In this document: one piece after another, positions 54,234 to 62,498 of the stretch | How the letters are laid out: every line of letters starts with the position of its first letter | Numbering within the stretch: the first letter of the stretch is position 1 | Assembly: GCA_043797975.1 (NCBI GenBank) | Contig: JAZDPC010000055.1 | Coordinates: 11,518 to 75,517 of the forward strand | DNA: 64,000 nucleotides | Direction of reading: 5' to 3' | DNA from: Bacteroidota bacterium | Lineage (GTDB): Bacteria > Bacteroidota > Bacteroidia > Bacteroidales > UBA12481 | Made by a program: the position numbers and the translations under genes | Notes under the pieces: model-generated | What the model was told of the DNA's origin: nothing | Databases searched by the model: none | The model's input: the letters and a program-made list of their open reading frames with translations, nothing else

Positions 54234-54384
54234 GGGCTTACGGGCGATAGGGTGTGAGTGTCTGTGTGGGTGTGGGTGTGAAATACAGAACCCCCTCCCT
54301 GGTTTCAGGGAGGGGGCTGGGGGTGGATACTTTTGCGCATCACGCATCACGCATCATGCATCACGTTTTGCGTCACTCGTCACT
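54234..54384. repeat. Composite stack of octamer, hexamer, palindrome and heptamer repeats
   Basis: gggcttacgggcgata, (gtgtgg)n, cccctccctg-gttt-cagggagggg, (gcatcac)x4 and (cgtcact)x2. Confidence 0.8.
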
Positions 54385-55345
54385 AAATCAGTCCCTTTGC
54401 GTGTTTTTCCCCGATGACCTTGAGCATATCCACGGTCATGGACGAAAGGTCGTATTTCGGATTCCAGCCCCATTCGGCGCGGGCGCAGCTGTCGTCCATC
54501 TTATTGGGCCAGGAATTGGCGATGGCTACTTTCACCGGGTCGGGTTCATAAGTCATGGCAAAATCGGGAATATGCTTTCTGATCTCGGCATAAATGATCT
54601 CGGGATCGAAGCTCATGGAGGTGACGTTGAAGGAGTTCCTGTGCACCAGCCGGGAAGGATCGGCCTCCATGATGTTTATTGCAGCATCCAGGGCATCAGG
54701 CATGTACATCATATCAAGGAAGGTGCCGGCCGGCAGCGGGCAGACAAATTTTTTTGTTTTTATGGCTTCGTAATAGATCTCCACGGCATAATCCGTTGTG
54801 CCGCCGCCCGGAAGGGTATCGTTTGAAATGATGCCCGGGAAGCGAACCCCGCGGGTATCGACGCCGAAACGCTTGAAATAATAATCGCAGAGCAATTCGC
54901 CGGTCACCTTGGTAATACCGTACATGGAACTCGGCCGCTGGATCGTGTCCTGGGGAGTGAAATCAAGCGGAGTGGTGGGCCCGAATGCCCCGATGGAGCT
55001 CGGGAAAAAGACGGCGCAGTTATTTTCACGGGCAACTTCCAGGACATTATACAGCCCGTTTACCCCGATTTTCCACGCGAGCTGGGGATGTTTCTCACCA
55101 ACGGCCGACAGTAAAGCTGCCAGATGATAGATGGTGTCTATATTGTACTTTTTAACCAGGGCGGCTATCTGGCCCGCATCCGTAACGTCCATGGTTTCCA
55201 TCGGCCCGGTCTCGGCCAGGGGGCCGGAGGTGATCACCCGCTTGTCGCTGCCGATCACGTGATTGTTACCGTACCGTTTCCGAAGTTCTATCGTCAGTTC
55301 CGAACCAATCTGACCGCCACATCCGGTTAAAAGTATGTTTTTCAT
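54383..55345 (-). CDS. tdh: SDR-type L-threonine 3-dehydrogenase
   Basis: TGCGGQIG, HLAALLSAVGE, PSSIGAFG, YGITK and PGGGTTDYAV. Divergent from kbl. Confidence 0.9.
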   Translation of the reverse strand: MKNILLTGCGGQIGSELTIELRKRYGNNHVIGSDKRVITSGPLAETGPMETMDVTDAGQIAALVKKYNIDTIYHLAALLSAVGEKHPQLAWKIGVNGLYNVLEVARENNCAVFFPSSIGAFGPTTPLDFTPQDTIQRPSSMYGITKVTGELLCDYYFKRFGVDTRGVRFPGIISNDTLPGGGTTDYAVEIYYEAIKTKKFVCPLPAGTFLDMMYMPDALDAAINIMEADPSRLVHRNSFNVTSMSFDPEIIYAEIRKHIPDFAMTYEPDPVKVAIANSWPNKMDDSCARAEWGWNPKYDLSSMTVDMLKVIGEKHAKGLI

Positions 55346-55537
55346 GGTTAAGTGCTTATAATCAATGACTTACAAAATCTGGATTCATTTTTTAAAAGTA
55401 CAGATTCCGGACAAACATTTCAATTTATCGCTGCCTTATTTAATGATATAAATCAGCAATATTCATGAGATTGAATCCTTTCTATTCATGCGCAAAGTTT
55501 TAATTTTGGCGCCGTAAAAGGAGAGATGTAAAAAGCC

Positions 55538-56728
55538 ATGTATAATAAGTTCCAAAAACATTTGCAGCAGCAATTGAGTGACATTGAAGCGGCAGGGTTA
55601 TTCAAGAATGAGCGGATCCTGGTAACACCGCAGGGACCCAAGATCAAGACTGCTGCCGGTCAGGAGGTTTTGAATTTCTGTGCGAACAACTACCTCGGAT
55701 TCTCCAATCATCCCCGGCTTGTGAAGGCAGCAAAGGAAGCGTTGGACACTCATGGCTACGGGATGTCGTCGGTCCGGTTTATCTGCGGCACCACCGATCT
55801 GCACAAACAACTGGAAAAAAGCATTTCCGATTTCTTCAGTACGGAAGATACTATCCTTTATGCAGCAGCTTTCGATGCAAACGGGGGTGTTTTCGAGCCC
55901 CTGCTCACCGATGAGGATGCCATTATTTCGGATACCCTGAATCACGCTTCGATCATCGATGGGGTAAGGCTTTGCAAAGCCCAGCGGTTCAGATATTCCA
56001 ACGCCGATATGGAGGACCTTGAGGACCAGCTGCAGCAGGCCCAGCCGTGCCGTTACCGGTTAATCGTAACTGACGGGGTTTTCTCAATGGACGGTAACGT
56101 CGCTCCTTTGGATAAGATCAAGGCATTAGCCGAAAAATACGATGCCATGATCCTGGTCGATGAATCGCATTCGGCCGGGGTCATTGGCAAGACAGGCAGG
56201 GGCACTACCGAGTATTTCAATATACGGGGCCAGGTGGAAATCATCACCGGCACGCTTGGAAAATCATTCGGCGGTGCCATCGGCGGATTCACAACCGGTA
56301 AAAAAGAGATCATCGCCATGCTCCGTCAGCGATCAAGACCCTACCTGTTCTCCAACTCCATTCCGCCAATGGTAGCAGCCGCGGGAATTGAGGTTTTTAA
56401 AATCATGAGCGAATCAACGGAATTTCTTGATAATCTGCATAAAAACCGGAGCTATTTTGTAGAACAGATGACGCGTCTCGGCTTTACGATCAAACCGACC
56501 CAATCGGGCATCTGCGCCATTATGTTTGGTGATGCCAAACTCTCCCAGGATGTAGCTTCCCGGTTGCTCGATGAAGGCATCTATGTGATTGGCTTCTATT
56601 TCCCTGTTGTTCCCAAAGGTGAGGCACGCATCCGTGTTCAGCTCAGTGCCGCCCACACCCATGATCAGCTTGTCAGGGTGGTCGCCGCCTTTGAAAAGGT
56701 CGGGCGGGAACTAGGGGTCATTTCGTAA
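55538..56728 (+). CDS. kbl: 2-amino-3-ketobutyrate CoA ligase (glycine C-acetyltransferase)
   Basis: FCANNYLG, SSVRFICGT, NHASIIDG, DESH, TLGKS (PLP Lys), RQRSRPYLFS and ARIRVQ. Confidence 0.95.
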   Translation: MYNKFQKHLQQQLSDIEAAGLFKNERILVTPQGPKIKTAAGQEVLNFCANNYLGFSNHPRLVKAAKEALDTHGYGMSSVRFICGTTDLHKQLEKSISDFFSTEDTILYAAAFDANGGVFEPLLTDEDAIISDTLNHASIIDGVRLCKAQRFRYSNADMEDLEDQLQQAQPCRYRLIVTDGVFSMDGNVAPLDKIKALAEKYDAMILVDESHSAGVIGKTGRGTTEYFNIRGQVEIITGTLGKSFGGAIGGFTTGKKEIIAMLRQRSRPYLFSNSIPPMVAAAGIEVFKIMSESTEFLDNLHKNRSYFVEQMTRLGFTIKPTQSGICAIMFGDAKLSQDVASRLLDEGIYVIGFYFPVVPKGEARIRVQLSAAHTHDQLVRVVAAFEKVGRELGVIS

Positions 56729-56820
56729 ACTTTTAACTGAGACGCATAATCATGCGTGTGTGCATAGTTTGTTATCTAAAAACGGGTATATTTGGGTACT
56801 AACCGTTTATTAACCTATCT

Positions 56821-58524
56821 ATGCATGCATTCAAATCCTATGAGGAGAGGATAAAGAATTTCTCGTGGGCTGAAGCCGGGCGTGAGCTTGGCTACAACCC
56901 TGGTGATGTGATCAACATTGGCTGGTACTGTTCCGATCGGATCTGCCAGCTTGGAAAATCTGAAAAAACAGCTTTAATCTGGGAAGGCAGAGGAGACGAA
57001 GTCAGGCGGTACTCCTATAATGACATCCGCCTGTTAAGCAACACGATCGGAGCTTTTCTAAAGGGACTCGGTATTACCGATGGCGACCGCGTTTGCCTGT
57101 TCATGGACAAGGTGCCGGAGCTGTATATCGGCCTGGTGGGAATCCTGAAGATCGGGGCCATTGCGCAGCCGCTTTTTTCTGCCTTCGGCGACGAATCGCT
57201 CTTTATCAGGCTGGAAAATGCCGGTACCCGTGCAATCATCACTCAACGCAAGCACGCGTCGAAAATCCAGAAGATTCTCGATCAGCTTCCAAACCTGGAG
57301 TTTATCATTGTGGTGGATGATGACGGGAAGAAGCCTCCGAGGCCGAAAGAGGTCCTGTTCCACCTGGATCAGGCAGAGCGGGTTGAACAGATAGATATTT
57401 TCCCCTCAAAAGCCGAAACCCCGTCGATCCTGCACTACACATCCGGTACCACCGGTCAGCCGAAGGGGGTTAAGCATGTACATTCCAGCCTGATATCACA
57501 ATATATAACTGCCAAATGGGTGCTTGACCTCCGGGATGACGATATATACTGGTGCACGGCCGACCCTGGCTGGGTAACCGGTACTTCCTACGGGATCATT
57601 GCCCCCTTTGCGATGGGGATTACCCAGTGTGTGATGGACATCGGATTTTCTGCGGAAGCCTGGTACCGGTTCATTGAAAAGCACCGGGTTACCATGTGGT
57701 ATTCTGCACCGACTGCTATCCGGTCGCTGATGAAAGCCGGCGATGAGATCGTCAGGCAGTTCGATCTGTCGAGCCTCAGGTATCTGGCAAGCGTAGGCGA
57801 GCCATTGAATGCAGAGGCCGTGGTATGGTCGGACCGGATGTTTGGAAAACCATTTTACGACACTTACTGGCAAACCGAAACCGGGTCTATCATGATCAGC
57901 AATTTCCCGGGAATGAAAGTGAAGCCGGGCTCCATGGGAAGGCCGTTCCCCGGGCTTACCGCTGCTATCCTGGATCCGGACACGTTTGAGCCGATCCATG
58001 AAGTCAATAAACCGGGCCTGATCGCTTTCCGGTACGACTGGCCCGCACGGATGCGGACCTATTGGAACAATGAAGAGACCTTCCTGAAGAAATTCAGAAA
58101 CGGGTGGTATCTCACGGGTGACCGTTCGACCATTGACCAGGACGGATACTACTGGTTTATCGGTCGCGACGATGATGTGATCAACACCGGGGGGCACCTG
58201 GTGAGTCCGTTCGAAGTGGAATCCGCCCTGCTGGAGCATCCGGCCGTGGCGGAATCCGCCGTGGTGGCTAAACCCGATCAGGTGAACATGGAGGTGGTAA
58301 AAGCTTTCGTCACACTGAATCCCGGTTTTAAACCTGATGATGAGCTCGAGCTCGATATCATGAATTTCATCCGGAAGAAGCTCTCCCCACTGGCCATGCC
58401 GCAGGAGATCGAATACATGGACCAACTTCCGAAAACCCGCAGCGGCAAGATCATGCGCCGGGTGCTGCATGCCCAGGAATGGGGAGAAGAGATCGGCGAT
58501 ATATCAACTTTGGAAAACGATTAA
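56821..58524 (+). CDS. Acetate-CoA ligase-like AMP-forming enzyme (AcsA type)
   Basis: YTSGTTGQPKG, WCTADPGWVTG, SVGEPLN, DTYWQTETG and LPKTRSGKIMRR. Confidence 0.85.
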   Translation: MHAFKSYEERIKNFSWAEAGRELGYNPGDVINIGWYCSDRICQLGKSEKTALIWEGRGDEVRRYSYNDIRLLSNTIGAFLKGLGITDGDRVCLFMDKVPELYIGLVGILKIGAIAQPLFSAFGDESLFIRLENAGTRAIITQRKHASKIQKILDQLPNLEFIIVVDDDGKKPPRPKEVLFHLDQAERVEQIDIFPSKAETPSILHYTSGTTGQPKGVKHVHSSLISQYITAKWVLDLRDDDIYWCTADPGWVTGTSYGIIAPFAMGITQCVMDIGFSAEAWYRFIEKHRVTMWYSAPTAIRSLMKAGDEIVRQFDLSSLRYLASVGEPLNAEAVVWSDRMFGKPFYDTYWQTETGSIMISNFPGMKVKPGSMGRPFPGLTAAILDPDTFEPIHEVNKPGLIAFRYDWPARMRTYWNNEETFLKKFRNGWYLTGDRSTIDQDGYYWFIGRDDDVINTGGHLVSPFEVESALLEHPAVAESAVVAKPDQVNMEVVKAFVTLNPGFKPDDELELDIMNFIRKKLSPLAMPQEIEYMDQLPKTRSGKIMRRVLHAQEWGEEIGDISTLEND

Positions 58525-58543
58525 TATCTAAATCAGAATAATA

Positions 58544-58792
58544 ATGCCAGAAATTAATGAATTGAAAGAGGTGATCCTCAAATACGTTATCAATGAATAC
58601 GCTGAAGAGGATTACAATTTGACCTACGACTCTCCGCTGATTTCCAGTGGATTGATTGACTCCTTCTCGATGGTTTCCCTCAAGCGGTTCCTTGAGGTGA
58701 AATATAAGATCTCGATACCTGACGACAAAGCCACTCCGGAGGCTTTTGACAATGTCAGCAAGATTGCCAGCCTGGTGACGAATTACTTATAA
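58544..58792 (+). CDS. Stand-alone acyl/aminoacyl carrier protein
   Basis: 82 aa, acidic, with SGLIDSFSMV (phosphopantetheine Ser) and a DltC/PCP-like layout. Confidence 0.85.
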   Translation: MPEINELKEVILKYVINEYAEEDYNLTYDSPLISSGLIDSFSMVSLKRFLEVKYKISIPDDKATPEAFDNVSKIASLVTNYL

Positions 58793-58801
58793 AAACCACC
58801 T

Positions 58802-60049
58802 ATGGGCTACAGTGATAAAACAAAAAAGGTCTACACCGATCAGCTTGATGCCATTGCTGCTGCAGGGCTTTTCAAGCAGGAACGGTTTATTCATTCGAGT
58901 CAGGCCGCGGATATCGAGGTAGAATTCCCTGCCGGTTCAGTCACCAAGAAGGTCATTAACATTTGTGCCAACAACTATCTCGGGCTCTCGAGCCACCCCG
59001 ATGTTATCAAGGCGGCCCACGAGGGGCTCGATACGCGCGGGTACGGGATGTCGTCGGTGCGGTTCATCTGCGGAACCCAGGATATTCACAGGGAGCTGGA
59101 GCGCAGGATGACGGAGTTTCTCGGAACCGAGGACACGATCCTCTTTCCCTCCTGCATGGATGCAAACGCGGGCGTTTTCGAAGCCCTGCTTACACAGGAT
59201 GATGTGATCATCTCCGACCGCCTGGTTCATGCTTCGCTGGTCGACGGGATCCGTCTCTGTTCGGCCATGCATGACACCTTCAAGCACTCGAACATGGAAC
59301 ATCTCGAAGAGAAGCTCCAGCTTCATGCCGATAAGCGTCTGAAAGTCGTTGTGAATGACGGGGTTTATTCGATGGACGGGGATATGGCGAAGGTCGATCA
59401 GCTGGTCGCATTGTGCGAAAAATATGACGCGATGCTGCTTGTCGACGAATCGCATGCATCGGGATTTATTGGGAAAACTGGCCGGGGAACCCCCGAACAC
59501 TGTGGTGTCCATGGCAAAGTTGATATTATCACAACGACCTTCGGGAAAGCGCTTGGCGGAGCTTCCGGGGGATGCGTTTCGGGGAGGAAGGAGATCGTTC
59601 AGATGTGCCGTCAGAAGGCCCGTCCTTATCTTTTCTCGAATACCATTGCACCGGTAGTGGTATCAGGTGTACTGAAGGTTCTCGACATCCTCAGCGAGAG
59701 CACTGAGCGGCGCGACAAGCTGGAACGCAACACCATACTTTGGCGCAAGGTACTCACCGAAGCCGGATTTATCATCAAAGAGGGCACGACGCCGATTGTG
59801 CCGGTAATGCTTTTCAATGCCAAGCTGGCGCAGGATGTATCGCGTGACCTTTACGAAGAAGGGATCTATGCTGTGGGATTCTTTTTCCCGGTGGTTCCCA
59901 ATGGCCAGGCCCGCATCCGTACGCAGATATCAGCCGGCCATGAGACCAATCACCTGCTTAAGGCACTCGACCGGTTCATCAAGGTAGGCAAGAAGTATGA
60001 TATACTCGGGAAGACGAAGGAGGAGATAATAGAACGCTACGGCCAGTAA
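58802..60049 (+). CDS. Second, divergent Kbl-like PLP alpha-oxoamine synthase
   Basis: CANNYLG, SSVRFICGT, DESH, TFGKALGG and RQKARPYLFS are kept. SDRLVHAS and FPSCMDAN differ from the first copy. Confidence 0.85.
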   Translation: MGYSDKTKKVYTDQLDAIAAAGLFKQERFIHSSQAADIEVEFPAGSVTKKVINICANNYLGLSSHPDVIKAAHEGLDTRGYGMSSVRFICGTQDIHRELERRMTEFLGTEDTILFPSCMDANAGVFEALLTQDDVIISDRLVHASLVDGIRLCSAMHDTFKHSNMEHLEEKLQLHADKRLKVVVNDGVYSMDGDMAKVDQLVALCEKYDAMLLVDESHASGFIGKTGRGTPEHCGVHGKVDIITTTFGKALGGASGGCVSGRKEIVQMCRQKARPYLFSNTIAPVVVSGVLKVLDILSESTERRDKLERNTILWRKVLTEAGFIIKEGTTPIVPVMLFNAKLAQDVSRDLYEEGIYAVGFFFPVVPNGQARIRTQISAGHETNHLLKALDRFIKVGKKYDILGKTKEEIIERYGQ

Positions 60050-60119
60050 AGGTGAAAGATTAAAGGCGAAAGGCGAAAGATAATGGTTCTTTCGCCTTTC
60101 TTCTTTCGCCTTTCGCCTT
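60048..60119. repeat. Inverted pair of AAAGGCG heptamer arrays
   Basis: aaaggcgaaaggcgaaaga ... tctttcgcctttcgcctt. Confidence 0.75.
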
Positions 60120-60130
60120 ATATTTATCCC

Positions 60131-60505
60131 ATGATTTTCGGAATTGGAACAGACATTATCGAGGTTGAGCGCATCCGCGGTTTTATTGCCAAGGGAGATG
60201 CGTTCAAGGAGCGGGTGTTTACCCCGGATGAGATTGTTTACAGTGATTCCTTTCGCGATCCCGCTCCGTTTTATGCAGCACGTTTTTCCGCCAAAGAGGC
60301 ATTTGTAAAAGCCTTAGGCACAGGATTCACCAGCGGCATTGCCTTCAACCAGATCGAAGTCTATCACGTGGAACTGGGCAAGCCTGAGATCCGTCTTACC
60401 GGAAAAGCCAGGGAAATAGCCGAAGAAAAAGGGATCACCAGAATATTCGTATCCATATCCCATGTCAAGGAGTGGGCTAATGCGATCGTAATACTTGAAA
60501 AGTAA
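60131..60505 (+). CDS. acpS: Holo-[ACP] synthase
   Basis: IFGIGTDIIE, ARFSAKEAFVKALGTG, GKP and VSISH. Confidence 0.95.
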   Translation: MIFGIGTDIIEVERIRGFIAKGDAFKERVFTPDEIVYSDSFRDPAPFYAARFSAKEAFVKALGTGFTSGIAFNQIEVYHVELGKPEIRLTGKAREIAEEKGITRIFVSISHVKEWANAIVILEK

Positions 60506-60508
60506 AAT

Positions 60509-60603
60509 AGGGCAAAAGGGCAGGAAAGCAGGAAGTAAAGTTTTAAATAATTAAGAATTAAAACTTAATCCTTTCCTTTTTGCCCTTCTGCCTTTCTGCC
60601 TTA
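60509..60603. repeat. Inverted octamer arms between convergent genes
   Basis: gggcaaaa-gggcagga-aagcagga ... tgcccttc-tgcctttc-tgcc. Confidence 0.65.
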
Positions 60604-60609
60604 ACCTGC

Positions 60610-61959
60610 TTAATTTTTTATGAACCTTCGGCTCACCTTCGCTCCCTCCTCATCGGTCATCACCATCAGGTAGAATCCGTTTTGCAGCTTCGATACATCG
60701 AGCTGGTGAGTATATCTTCCGCCGGCCGGATAGTTTTCAGGGATGTCTTCATCGGATATCAGCCGTCCACCCAGGTCGAGCACCCGGAACCGGATCTGCT
60801 TGGCTTTCTGCAGGACCAGGTCCACATTGAGCTTATCCTGGACCGGGTTCGGATAGAGGTTCACATAGTCCAGCCCCGATAAGGATTCGCACAGGTTGGA
60901 GAAATAAACGCAGGGAACCGGCTCGGTTTTTCCATCAGAAGTGTCCTGCTGTCCTGCACCCTCCGGAATTCTGATCGGCACTCCCATATTATAATCTTGC
61001 CGGCGCTGTTGTTCGCCGCTGATTCCGATGCTATACCCCAAATTAGGTACAAAATTGGGATCCATCCGTTTTTTCTGATAATTGAACTCCATGCGCATCG
61101 GCCGGGCAATATCAGGGGGAAGGCACTGGAAGAAACGTTCGTTGGGGTAAATCCAGAAGATTATATCCCGATCATTTTGTTTGGCCCATTGAATATCAAC
61201 CTGTAACGGAATACATAAATCAAGGTAATCCTGCCAGGTTTCAACCTTGACTCCGGTTTGCCTGTAAACCCGGGTCGGCATATCAATAAGCTCCATTCCC
61301 CCGAAATTGGAAATGCCCATCAATATGATACTTTCGGTGGTCGGCATCAGTGTGTCGGAAGGATTCCTGATCGGATGTACTTCGTCGGCGGAACCTGTTA
61401 TCGTAACTTGTTTATTAATAAATAGTTTCATTGTGAACCAAAGCTCAATAGCGCGGAACTTACATTCTATAACGGTGTCTCCGATGTTGATACCCATGCA
61501 CTCCATGACATCCCGAGAGACACGTATGGCATTCGCCGGTTCCTGGCTTAAGTTTTCCTGAGTGGTCGTTACTAAACCTGATTTAGCAGAATCCTGTTTG
61601 GAAATCCTGAAGGTTTGCTTTGGATACTCTTTCGCGGCAATCGGAATAACTGGTCTATCGACATTCAAGACGACCGGCTGTTCGGTTGGTTTGATCCTCT
61701 CGCTAGCTATTCGTCTATTTTCTCCCCCTGGATTCAGGATCAACAGGGCGGCTGTTATAATGACAATTGGTGTGATCATGACAATAAGTTTTAACGGATT
61801 TAACAATTGTGTGATCCGTCGGGGCCTGAACGAAGGCTTGGAGGCCAGGGGCGAAGTTTTGCCGGATTCCACCAGCGATCGGATCTTGCTGACCGGAATC
61901 TCCGGCGCCGCTTTGCGCGCCTGTTCAAATAATTCGGAAAGACTTTTTTCTTTTTTCAT
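60610..61959 (-). CDS. Single-TM anti-sigma-like protein with C-terminal T9SS type A sorting domain
   Basis: ATG 61959 overlaps the sigma stop (ATGA). About 55 polar N-terminal residues, TM LIVMITPIVIITAALLIL, and CTD LYPNPVQD...LDLGGR...GFYLM...RRFIKN. Confidence 0.7.
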   Translation of the reverse strand: MKKEKSLSELFEQARKAAPEIPVSKIRSLVESGKTSPLASKPSFRPRRITQLLNPLKLIVMITPIVIITAALLILNPGGENRRIASERIKPTEQPVVLNVDRPVIPIAAKEYPKQTFRISKQDSAKSGLVTTTQENLSQEPANAIRVSRDVMECMGINIGDTVIECKFRAIELWFTMKLFINKQVTITGSADEVHPIRNPSDTLMPTTESIILMGISNFGGMELIDMPTRVYRQTGVKVETWQDYLDLCIPLQVDIQWAKQNDRDIIFWIYPNERFFQCLPPDIARPMRMEFNYQKKRMDPNFVPNLGYSIGISGEQQRRQDYNMGVPIRIPEGAGQQDTSDGKTEPVPCVYFSNLCESLSGLDYVNLYPNPVQDKLNVDLVLQKAKQIRFRVLDLGGRLISDEDIPENYPAGGRYTHQLDVSKLQNGFYLMVMTDEEGAKVSRRFIKN

Positions 61960-62498
61960 TTGTCTTCCTCCTTCCTTGTGCCTTGAGCCTTGTGCCTTGA
62001 GCCTTCCGACGGTTCTAGCCATAGTCGCAATTGTTCCCGTCCACGCTTAATGCGCGATTTCACTCCTGACAGCGTTCCGCCCTGCAGTTGCCGGATTTCT
62101 TCGAGCTTAAAGCCCGAGAGTTCGAACAGTACCAGTGCTTCGCGCTGTTTGGATGGAAGTTTTCCAAGGAGGTTGTAAAGAACCTCCACATCATGCAGTA
62201 TTTCCGGTGTCGGATCCGAAGCCGGCAGCATTTCGGCCCCTGCTTCGCTGTACTCTCCCCGGAACTTTCCTCTCCGGTAATGATGCAGTCGCAATCGTCG
62301 GGCCACGCCGAACAGATAGGCTTTGAAGGAATCTTTCTTCCGGAGTTGATCCAGATTCTCAAAGACGATCAGCACAGCCTCACCCGCCAGATCCCGGGCA
62401 TCCTCGCGGTTACCGGTTAATCCGCGACAATACCCGGTGAACGCCTGGTGACAGGGAGTGTACATCTCCATGAACACCTCTTGTTTTGTTGAATTCAA
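61956..62498 (-). CDS. ECF RNA polymerase sigma factor
   Basis: EDARDLAGE, FKAYLFGVA, QREALVLFELSGF and VKSRIKRGR. Confidence 0.9.
   Translation of the reverse strand: MNSTKQEVFMEMYTPCHQAFTGYCRGLTGNREDARDLAGEAVLIVFENLDQLRKKDSFKAYLFGVARRLRLHHYRRGKFRGEYSEAGAEMLPASDPTPEILHDVEVLYNLLGKLPSKQREALVLFELSGFKLEEIRQLQGGTLSGVKSRIKRGREQLRLWLEPSEGSRHKAQGTRKEEDK

Follow-up and report, generated by a model that had tools for sequence, protein, structure and literature searches.

The window analyzed here, a 64,000-nt stretch of contig JAZDPC010000055.1 from a Bacteroidales genome (assembly GCA_043797975.1; completeness, 73%), contains a tdh-kbl locus extended by three adjacent genes coding for an AcsA-type acetate ligase, a small carrier protein and a second Kbl homolog (Kbl2), followed by acpS (Table 1; positions are those of the window). 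This ligase-carrier-Kbl2 trio is conserved in at least eight phyla, and its sequence features make it quite likely that Kbl2 and the ligase prefer the private carrier over coenzyme A (CoA). Given carrier use, we lean slightly toward a catabolic net direction. The reading that we favor, tentatively and at a little short of even confidence, is that the trio serves threonine breakdown through a branch that bypasses CoA and would yield acetate and ATP.

In the proposed pathway, Tdh would make 2-amino-3-ketobutyrate from threonine, AcpS would load Ser40 of the carrier, and Kbl2 would split 2-amino-3-ketobutyrate into glycine and an acetyl group held on the private carrier. The ligase would run backwards, converting acetyl-carrier, AMP and pyrophosphate to acetate and ATP. 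By holding the acetyl group apart from the CoA pool, the carrier would reserve it for the step that recovers the energy of pyrophosphate, and this branch would work beside the ordinary Kbl1/CoA/AckA route.

Conservation and neighborhood of the trio

A scan of species-representative genomes returned at least 457 relatives of Kbl2. All counts of loci given here refer to the best 80 of these, two of which come from the same assembly. They span at least eight phyla, with hosts among Bacteroidales, Ignavibacteria, Zixibacteria, Aminicenantes, Delongbacteria, Cloacimonadota, Calditrichaceae, Marinimicrobia, Acidobacteria and others; the closest named relatives, among the matches listed, are uncultured Bacteroidales. 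The carrier gene adjoins kbl2 in 78/80 loci, and the full trio is found in 70/80, or in 70 of the 75 loci not ended by a contig edge. The ten loci lacking it comprise five contig ends, four with carrier and Kbl2 genes without an adjacent ligase gene, and one (L042) with kbl2 alone. The arrangement is not due to chance, and the conservation that the initial annotation had left to a survey of synteny is borne out. Compared in pairs, the Kbl2s have a median identity of 81%, the ligases of 75% and the carriers of 68%; the carrier family comprises 4263 clusters at E <= 1e-6. Pairwise distances of Kbl2 correlate with those of the ligase with a rho of 0.78, versus 0.42 to 0.56 for the neighboring Kbl, in a sample whose members are kin and not independent.

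Linkage to Tdh, implied by the initial annotation, holds at the level of genomes. Within the fetched flanks, tdh accompanies 34/80 loci, coding for one of two enzymes with unrelated folds, the short-chain dehydrogenase/reductase (SDR) type in 15/80 and the zinc type in 19/80, never both. A search of 66 genomes, reduced to 64 by removing one duplicate and one genome with no Kbl found (G162), revealed a Tdh of either fold in 62/64 (48/50 in the 50-genome set described below). The flanks also hold acpS in 35/80 loci, and a further oxoamine synthase gene lies near 44/80. In the window's own family the carrier is present in 22/24 genomes, and a sample of 200 genomes from across the order has it in 17, of which 16 have Kbl2 as well. 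Our literature searches, with most subscription journals and supplements outside their reach, retrieved no description of a ligase-carrier-Kbl2 module.

Some individual loci are unusual. G162 (98% complete) has acpS, ligase and carrier genes at L135:5992-8382 with no Kbl or Tdh found, which may be a vestige or may show ligase and carrier in a different role. In G068, a DDE transposase gene sits between the ligase and carrier genes (L118:9228-10709) and an IS110-family transposase gene between kbl2 and acpS (L118:5994-6989), with the trio genes all intact. At L008:4166-6612, flavoprotein and iron-sulfur genes resembling those of succinate dehydrogenase/fumarate reductase occupy the usual place of the ligase gene before the carrier gene and kbl2. 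At L046:7001-8251, a frameshift in the assembly, from error or decay, breaks kbl2 in two.

Sequence features of Kbl2, carrier and ligase

Kbl2 exceeds the cut-off of the glycine C-acetyltransferase model TIGR01822, and the PDB entries that it matches best (E 5e-134) are Kbls. The 80 Kbl2s cluster with weak support (0.56, or 0.98 when one sister row is included), separately from the 41 canonical Kbls. Kbl1 groups with E. coli Kbl, one of these canonical enzymes, and five sister paralogs are placed between the two sets. The pyridoxal phosphate lysine, His136, Asp210, His213, Ser185, Asn50 and Arg368 (E. coli numbering), which we take to be catalytic or pocket residues, and Val79, presumably part of the glycine pocket, are invariant in 80/80 Kbl2s. 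Because the catalytic and amino-acid-pocket positions are invariant, Kbl2 has probably retained the glycine chemistry.

The strand at positions 147 to 152 has a net charge of +3 or +4 in 41/41 canonical Kbls and of zero or below in 79/80 Kbl2s; Kbl1 retains the basic strand. Position 150, in this strand of the adenosyl pocket, is Arg in 41/41 canonical Kbls versus 3/80 Kbl2s. The central position of the strand aligns without gaps to Lys156 of Rhodobacter capsulatus 5-aminolevulinate synthase (ALAS), a residue lining the pocket that takes up the adenosyl part of succinyl-CoA (PMC4615937, excerpt). Judged from the alignments, these residue changes are likely to reflect a loss of CoA binding and a switch to the carrier. 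Other clade-specific residues include F115, P116, M119, R140, V142 and D158, of which M119 and V142 lie near the cofactor. E. coli BioF, which we assume to accept acyl-acyl carrier protein (ACP), shares the Arg of position R140, and its residue at position 150 is not basic.

The motifs highlighted in the initial annotation, DTYWQTETG in the ligase and SSVRFICGT, VHAS and FPSCMDAN in Kbl2, are all present in the translations, as are the 5-residue insert and 12-residue tail of Kbl2. The reported change from YAAAFDAN to FPSCMDAN needs refinement, its SC being the E. coli pair (YSSCFDAN) and its clade-specific residues being F115, P116 and M119. The insert and tail are not restricted to the clade: the insert columns are filled in 7/41 canonical Kbls, and the five sister paralogs, which have the basic CoA strand, carry both. 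We therefore discarded them as markers of carrier use. The sister paralogs are encoded at L019:8273-9631 and, downstream of kbl2, at L055, L056, L075 and L080; that of L019 has the intermediate residues M119 and I142 and may reveal the order of change.

In the carrier, the motif D39-S40-F41-S42-M43 is invariant in 78/78 sequences, and Ser40, at the start of helix II, aligns with the attachment serines of the carriers matched in PDB. The protein scores 20 bits against the AcpP model TIGR00517 (cut-off, 70). It is nearer to peptidyl and aminoacyl carriers than to AcpP, its best PDB matches resembling peptidyl carrier proteins (PCPs), and the housekeeping AcpP of the source genome is encoded on another contig. 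Helix II has Lys47 in 67/78 and Arg48 in 53/78 sequences where AcpP is acidic, and this basic helix could complement the altered strand of Kbl2.

The acpS gene of the window codes for the only AcpS found in the source genome. In G054, a 98% complete genome of the same genus, the trio is cleanly absent, acpS directly follows kbl1, and tdh is kept. This arrangement led us to reject acpS as a dedicated member of the trio here, in line with the caution in the initial annotation that it may be independent. Because of the G054 arrangement and of the hairpin and promoter-like box that precede it, acpS is likely a separate, housekeeping gene whose product would also load the private carrier. Its location upstream of the ligase gene in 31/80 other loci supports a need for carrier loading.

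The ligase has kept an acetate pocket: V252, T253 and V325 are found in 65/65 trio ligases and W350 in 64/65 (Val310, Thr311, Val386 and Trp414 of Acs), and the catalytic lysine (Lys609 in Acs numbering) in 64/65. Arginines 191, 526 and 584 of Acs are described as residues of the CoA step (PMC10455477, excerpt). Leu460 replaces Arg526 in 65/65 trio ligases. The loop that contains Arg191 is also replaced, as it is in the AcsAs of Bacillota; the CoA-loop determinant of Syntrophus was dropped as a diagnostic, since that loop is replaced in the whole AcsA-type family.

Related ligases occur on plasmids. We inspected eight of 92 plasmid matches (five non-Bacillota and three Bacillota), one in a stretch without annotation. 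All five non-Bacillota ligases (L085-L088 and L091; Ralstonia, Rhodococcus, Desulfotalea, Methylocystis and Tropicibacter plasmids) sit in acsA-pdhA-pdhB-E2-ACP clusters, and the annotation of these stretches shows no E3; the 3/3 Bacillota ligases stand alone. Like the trio ligases, those of the cassette have Leu (or Met) at position 526. In a 22-row tree with 12 of the 65 trio ligases, the two sets group with support of 86/79. The pairing of a ligase with a carrier of its own seems to be a design that can be reused, and common ancestry is weakly supported by these sequences. In the cassette, an irreversible acetyl donor would likely leave the ligase as the consumer; with these being the nearest ligases from cultured hosts, the cassette speaks for the breakdown direction of the trio. 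That a family of AcsA-type ligases swapped CoA for private carriers, as a plug-in ATP generator fed with acetyl groups from threonine, pyruvate or acetaldehyde, is conceivable, and we place it on the unlikely side; hundreds of anaerobes would then perform protein-tethered substrate-level phosphorylation. No description of the acsA-pdhA-pdhB-E2-ACP cassette was retrieved in the literature searched.

By analogy, the trio resembles the AasR-AcpR-serine palmitoyltransferase (SPT) system of Caulobacter and other Rhodobacteria in design and the Tdh-Kbl pathway in chemistry. It is a full member of neither: it does not show the features of an SPT, and Kbl2 has not retained the strand of Kbl on the CoA side. 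With the former it shares a co-occurring ligase, dedicated carrier and alpha-oxoamine synthase; AasR bears the annotation of a CoA ligase and, as described in the excerpt of PMC9386255, transfers acyl groups to its own carrier AcpR alone. Unlike that system, the trio is predicted to act on a two-carbon acid and glycine rather than on a long-chain acid and serine, and its carrier helix II is without the acidic residues reported for AcpR (PMC9386255, excerpt). The two are not orthologous, Kbl2 scoring 228 to 311 bits against SPT models with cut-offs of 500 to 670 and the acetate pocket of the ligase being closed. Kbl chemistry also differs from that of SPT in being reversible and non-decarboxylating. 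With the Tdh-Kbl pathway (E. coli tdh-kbl; Cupriavidus Kbl, PDB 7bxp; SDR-type Tdh, PDB 7ol1 and 2yy7), which has been put to use in engineered E. coli to cleave threonine (bioRxiv 2022.09.28.509898, excerpt), the trio shares the TIGR01822 match, the catalytic residues and glycine pocket, and the co-occurrence of Tdh. It differs in that Kbl2 falls into a clade of its own, linked to a ligase and a carrier, has lost the basic CoA strand, and usually occurs alongside a canonical Kbl. The closest solved relative of the ligase is Bacillus-type AcsA (NF003313; PDB 9g79; E 3.5e-165), with the same acetate pocket and catalytic lysine; that enzyme stands alone (3/3 Bacillota records) and has Arg at 526, whereas Leu takes this place in the trio ligases, which make up a clade on a long branch. 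The acsA-pdhA-pdhB-E2-ACP cassette likewise combines a related ligase with a GHL motif, a dedicated carrier and an acetyl-thioester enzyme; its donor is a pyruvate dehydrogenase (PDH)-like complex.

Direction of the pathway and competing explanations

Genes bearing on direction were counted in 50 trio genomes for which completeness figures are absent. We counted thrC as strong only at E <= 1e-62, because hom and thrC matches in two inspected genomes lie outside a thr operon; for this reason a joint count of hom and thrC as the canonical route (24/50) was set aside as overstated. While thrC is over the cut-off in 35/50 genomes, it is strong in 17/50. No match was found for ilvD in 33/50 genomes, for hom in 20/50, or for hisD in 5/5 of the hom-less genomes tested. 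These gaps exceed incompleteness, since ackA (44/50) and Tdh (48/50) are found. Given these gaps alongside the presence of ackA, most trio hosts look like amino-acid consumers. Strong thrC accompanies ilvD (12/17 ilvD-positive versus 5/33 ilvD-negative genomes), and ilvD is absent from all of six trio genomes in the order that are without thrC.

The initial annotation had raised a correlation of the trio with loss of thrABC, which was not found. Across the order, strong thrC is present in 8/16 trio genomes versus 84/184 others, and the trio-bearing G057, G058 and G060, of the same genus as the source genome, have an intact thrA-thrB-thrC. We rejected replacement of thrABC as a general role, because thrC is kept in many trio genomes, and replacement of AckA, because most trio genomes have ackA. 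In the source genome ackA was not found; this gap likely reflects incompleteness, since 4/4 close relatives compared have the gene. Kbl2 is the only Kbl found in 13/50 trio genomes, including the single-contig G049, in which ackA was not found.

An AMP-forming Acs can make ATP in vivo in Syntrophus (PMC4992975, excerpt). The trio resembles Acs1 of Syntrophus aciditrophicus (PMC4992975 and PMC13404658, excerpts) in the proposed formation of ATP from an acetyl thioester, AMP and pyrophosphate. Acs1 differs in using CoA in a host that, according to these excerpts, is without Ack/Pta, and the trio ligase is of the shorter AcsA type, in which the bias-setting loop of Acs1 is replaced throughout the family. 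Among the three roles proposed in the initial annotation, ATP recovery agrees best with the genomes at large, threonine synthesis is plausible mainly in the window's own family, and nothing found points to a secreted aminoketone. Every step of the module is reversible; therefore, it may run in either direction depending on the host.

Several observations weigh against the catabolic branch, and some against carrier use itself. A CoA-based breakdown route is already available in most hosts (second Kbl in 37/50, ackA in 44/50), and all characterized ligase-carrier-oxoamine synthase sets run, to our knowledge, in the condensing direction. The carriers of the PDH cassette form a different subfamily, unmatched by the trio-carrier profile, and the grouping of the two ligase sets is weak. 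A Pat-like protein (acyl-CoA ligase-like plus GNAT domain; two of five domain-scanned) is encoded near 5/80 loci (L078:9349-12036, L076:10035-12722, L009, L051 and L054), a possible control of the ligase by lysine acetylation; such acetyltransferases typically control Acs in assimilation. Within the window's own family, thrC is over the cut-off in 6/24 genomes, and ilvD is found in about 20/24. Four of its near-complete genomes, G068 (one contig, 100% complete), G061, G056 and G059, have hisD, trpB and ilvD (split in G061) and yielded no thrC and neither of the two homoserine kinase types tested. G054 lost the trio together with ilvD and trpB and kept tdh-kbl1.

These family-level patterns, in which a carrier found in 22/24 genomes meets the scarcity of thrC, cells without thrB or thrC that seem able to make His, Trp and the branched-chain amino acids, and a trio lost along with other biosynthetic genes, would suit ATP-driven threonine synthesis, which we consider unlikely overall. 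The ligase would charge the carrier with acetate, Kbl2 would condense the acetyl group with glycine, and Tdh would reduce the product with NADH; the charged private carrier would push a near-equilibrium reaction, and Kbl1 would serve breakdown. Architecture and direction would then be as in AasR-AcpR-SPT, and the coexistence of a second Kbl in 37/50 genomes, the promoter-like box that kbl1 and the ligase gene each have in front of them, and the lack of hom in all ten checked genomes with tdh joined directly to the trio fit this explanation as well. Against it stand the lack of anticorrelation with thrC across the order, the full thrABC of three trio-bearing relatives, and the gaps in ilvD and hisD, which imply that missing thr genes mostly track general auxotrophy. 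G066 and G071, members of the own family without ilvD, have also kept the trio, as traced by its carrier. The thrC-less cells of this family need threonine via uptake, threonine aldolase, Kbl1-Tdh or the trio; PF01212, which covers threonine aldolase and other lyases, is matched in 25/25 genomes, and with Kbl1-Tdh such genes provide alternative routes in the family. In the source genome, hom lies in a methionine operon (gene names from sequences). A threonine-aldolase-like gene is found about 3 kb beyond kbl2 at L005:11337-12356 and is linked on the same contig in G059 too. In the source genome, L081:1336-2688 (G000:C1) codes for a divergent, 450-aa threonine-synthase-like pyridoxal phosphate enzyme with an N-terminal Cys cluster, below all cut-offs, and adjoins a sodium:solute symporter-like gene.

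It is quite unlikely that the enzymes still use CoA, as an ordinary Acs and a second Kbl, with the carrier as an accessory, e.g., regulatory or serving an unlinked pathway. Both pass the curated cut-offs of CoA-using families, and the ligase is the only Acs-type enzyme found in the source genome. Arg584 is retained in 65/65 trio ligases, and replacement of Arg526 by Ala in Salmonella Acs had an effect of 2- to 4-fold only, as cited in the excerpt of PMC10455477. At the Lys156-equivalent position, His is the commonest Kbl2 residue (63/80, with Arg in 3/80), and a screen of mouse ALAS2 found His tolerated there (PMC4615937, excerpt). The acpS-ligase-carrier set of G162 without Kbl or Tdh found, and kbl2 of L042 without its neighbors, also fit retained CoA use. 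Opposing this explanation are the carrier adjoining Kbl2 in 78/80 loci across phyla with its invariant serine motif, the gaps of 9 to 19 bp here, and the wholesale change of charge in the CoA strand of Kbl2. We hold it least probable that the trio depends on the carrier for another purpose, i.e., a glycine-cycling relay or production of aminoacetone or another small aminoketone by Kbl2. Two Kbls acting on one glycine/ketobutyrate pool would swap acetyl groups between CoA and carrier, another oxoamine synthase is encoded in 44/80 loci, and the clade-specific M119 and V142 lie near the cofactor; against this explanation stand the 13/50 genomes in which Kbl2 is the only Kbl found, the unchanged amino-acid pocket, and neighbor clusters that, among the 80 loci, contain no conserved tailoring, export or receptor gene.

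Organization of the locus and implications

The six open reading frames of the initial annotation and the gaps of 19 bp between the ligase and carrier genes and 9 bp between the carrier gene and kbl2 were confirmed by remeasurement. Tdh is an L-threonine dehydrogenase as proposed, its fold being of the SDR type and not the zinc type of E. coli; 18 PDB sequences match it over the full length at E <= 1e-30, the top ones all L-threonine dehydrogenases.

Table 1. Features of the tdh-kbl-trio-acpS locus
Feature	Position	Strand	Evidence
tdh, SDR-type L-threonine 3-dehydrogenase, 320 aa	54383..55345	-	best PDB match 7ol1, E 3e-121
TAnnTTTG box before kbl1	55501..55508	+	exact match
kbl1, canonical Kbl, glycine C-acetyltransferase, predicted CoA-dependent	55538..56728	+	TIGR01822, 653 bits (cut-off, 493)
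TAnnTTTG box before ligase gene	56787..56794	+	exact match, 27 bp 5' of ATG; imperfect in close relatives
ligase, AcsA-type AMP-forming acetate ligase, 567 aa, predicted carrier-acting	56821..58524	+	NF003313, 747 bits (cut-off, 729)
carrier protein, 82 aa, Ser40 in DSFSM	58544..58792	+	phosphopantetheine attachment motif; PCP-like PDB matches
kbl2, specialized Kbl clade, 415 aa	58802..60049	+	TIGR01822, 559 bits (cut-off, 493); 52% identity to Kbl1
repeat-based hairpin between kbl2 and acpS	60063..60118	+	-38.2 kcal/mol, z -6.6; terminator-like match
imperfect TAnnTTTG box after the kbl2/acpS hairpin	60119-60126	+	exact box at equivalent place in relative L007
acpS, AcpS phosphopantetheinyl transferase	60131..60505	+	TIGR00516, 106 bits (cut-off, 60)

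The trio may have its own promoter. TAnnTTTG, which we take to be the -7 promoter motif of Bacteroidota, shows no enrichment over the window (36 found versus 39 expected), and the box before kbl1 is suggestive by position only; sigma-70 promoter and terminator counts in a window scan are at chance level. The hairpin preceding acpS, noticed in the initial annotation, is genuine according to its folding z score. The likely start of acpS is at 60131, the alternative ATG at 60083 falling within the hairpin. Intergenic hairpins are found at 54250-54382, 60050-60130, 60506-60609 and 61950-62050 of the window and also in the relatives L006 and L007; several are made of 7-nt repeats of the AAAGGC[G/A] and TGCCTTC types, and three fold far more stably than shuffled sequence. 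Downstream (60610-62498), a gene for an extracytoplasmic function (ECF) sigma-like factor is followed on the opposite strand by one for a 470-aa protein with a type IX secretion system (T9SS) tail; they are not conserved beside the trio.

What bears newly on the trio is the charge switch in the Kbl2 strand, the comparison with G054, and the auxotrophy pattern relating to direction. We know of carrier proteins in lipid and natural-product assembly, not as substitutes for CoA in a central amino-acid reaction. The Kbl1 and Kbl2 of one genome form a natural pair for locating the CoA-to-carrier switch in oxoamine synthases, and an orthogonal acetyl carrier would be of use in engineering. If the trio acts as proposed, hundreds of genes annotated as acetate--CoA ligase and glycine C-acetyltransferase would be misannotated. 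Anaerobic amino-acid consumers would then possess an unrecognized means of recovering the energy of pyrophosphate or an unrecognized threonine route.

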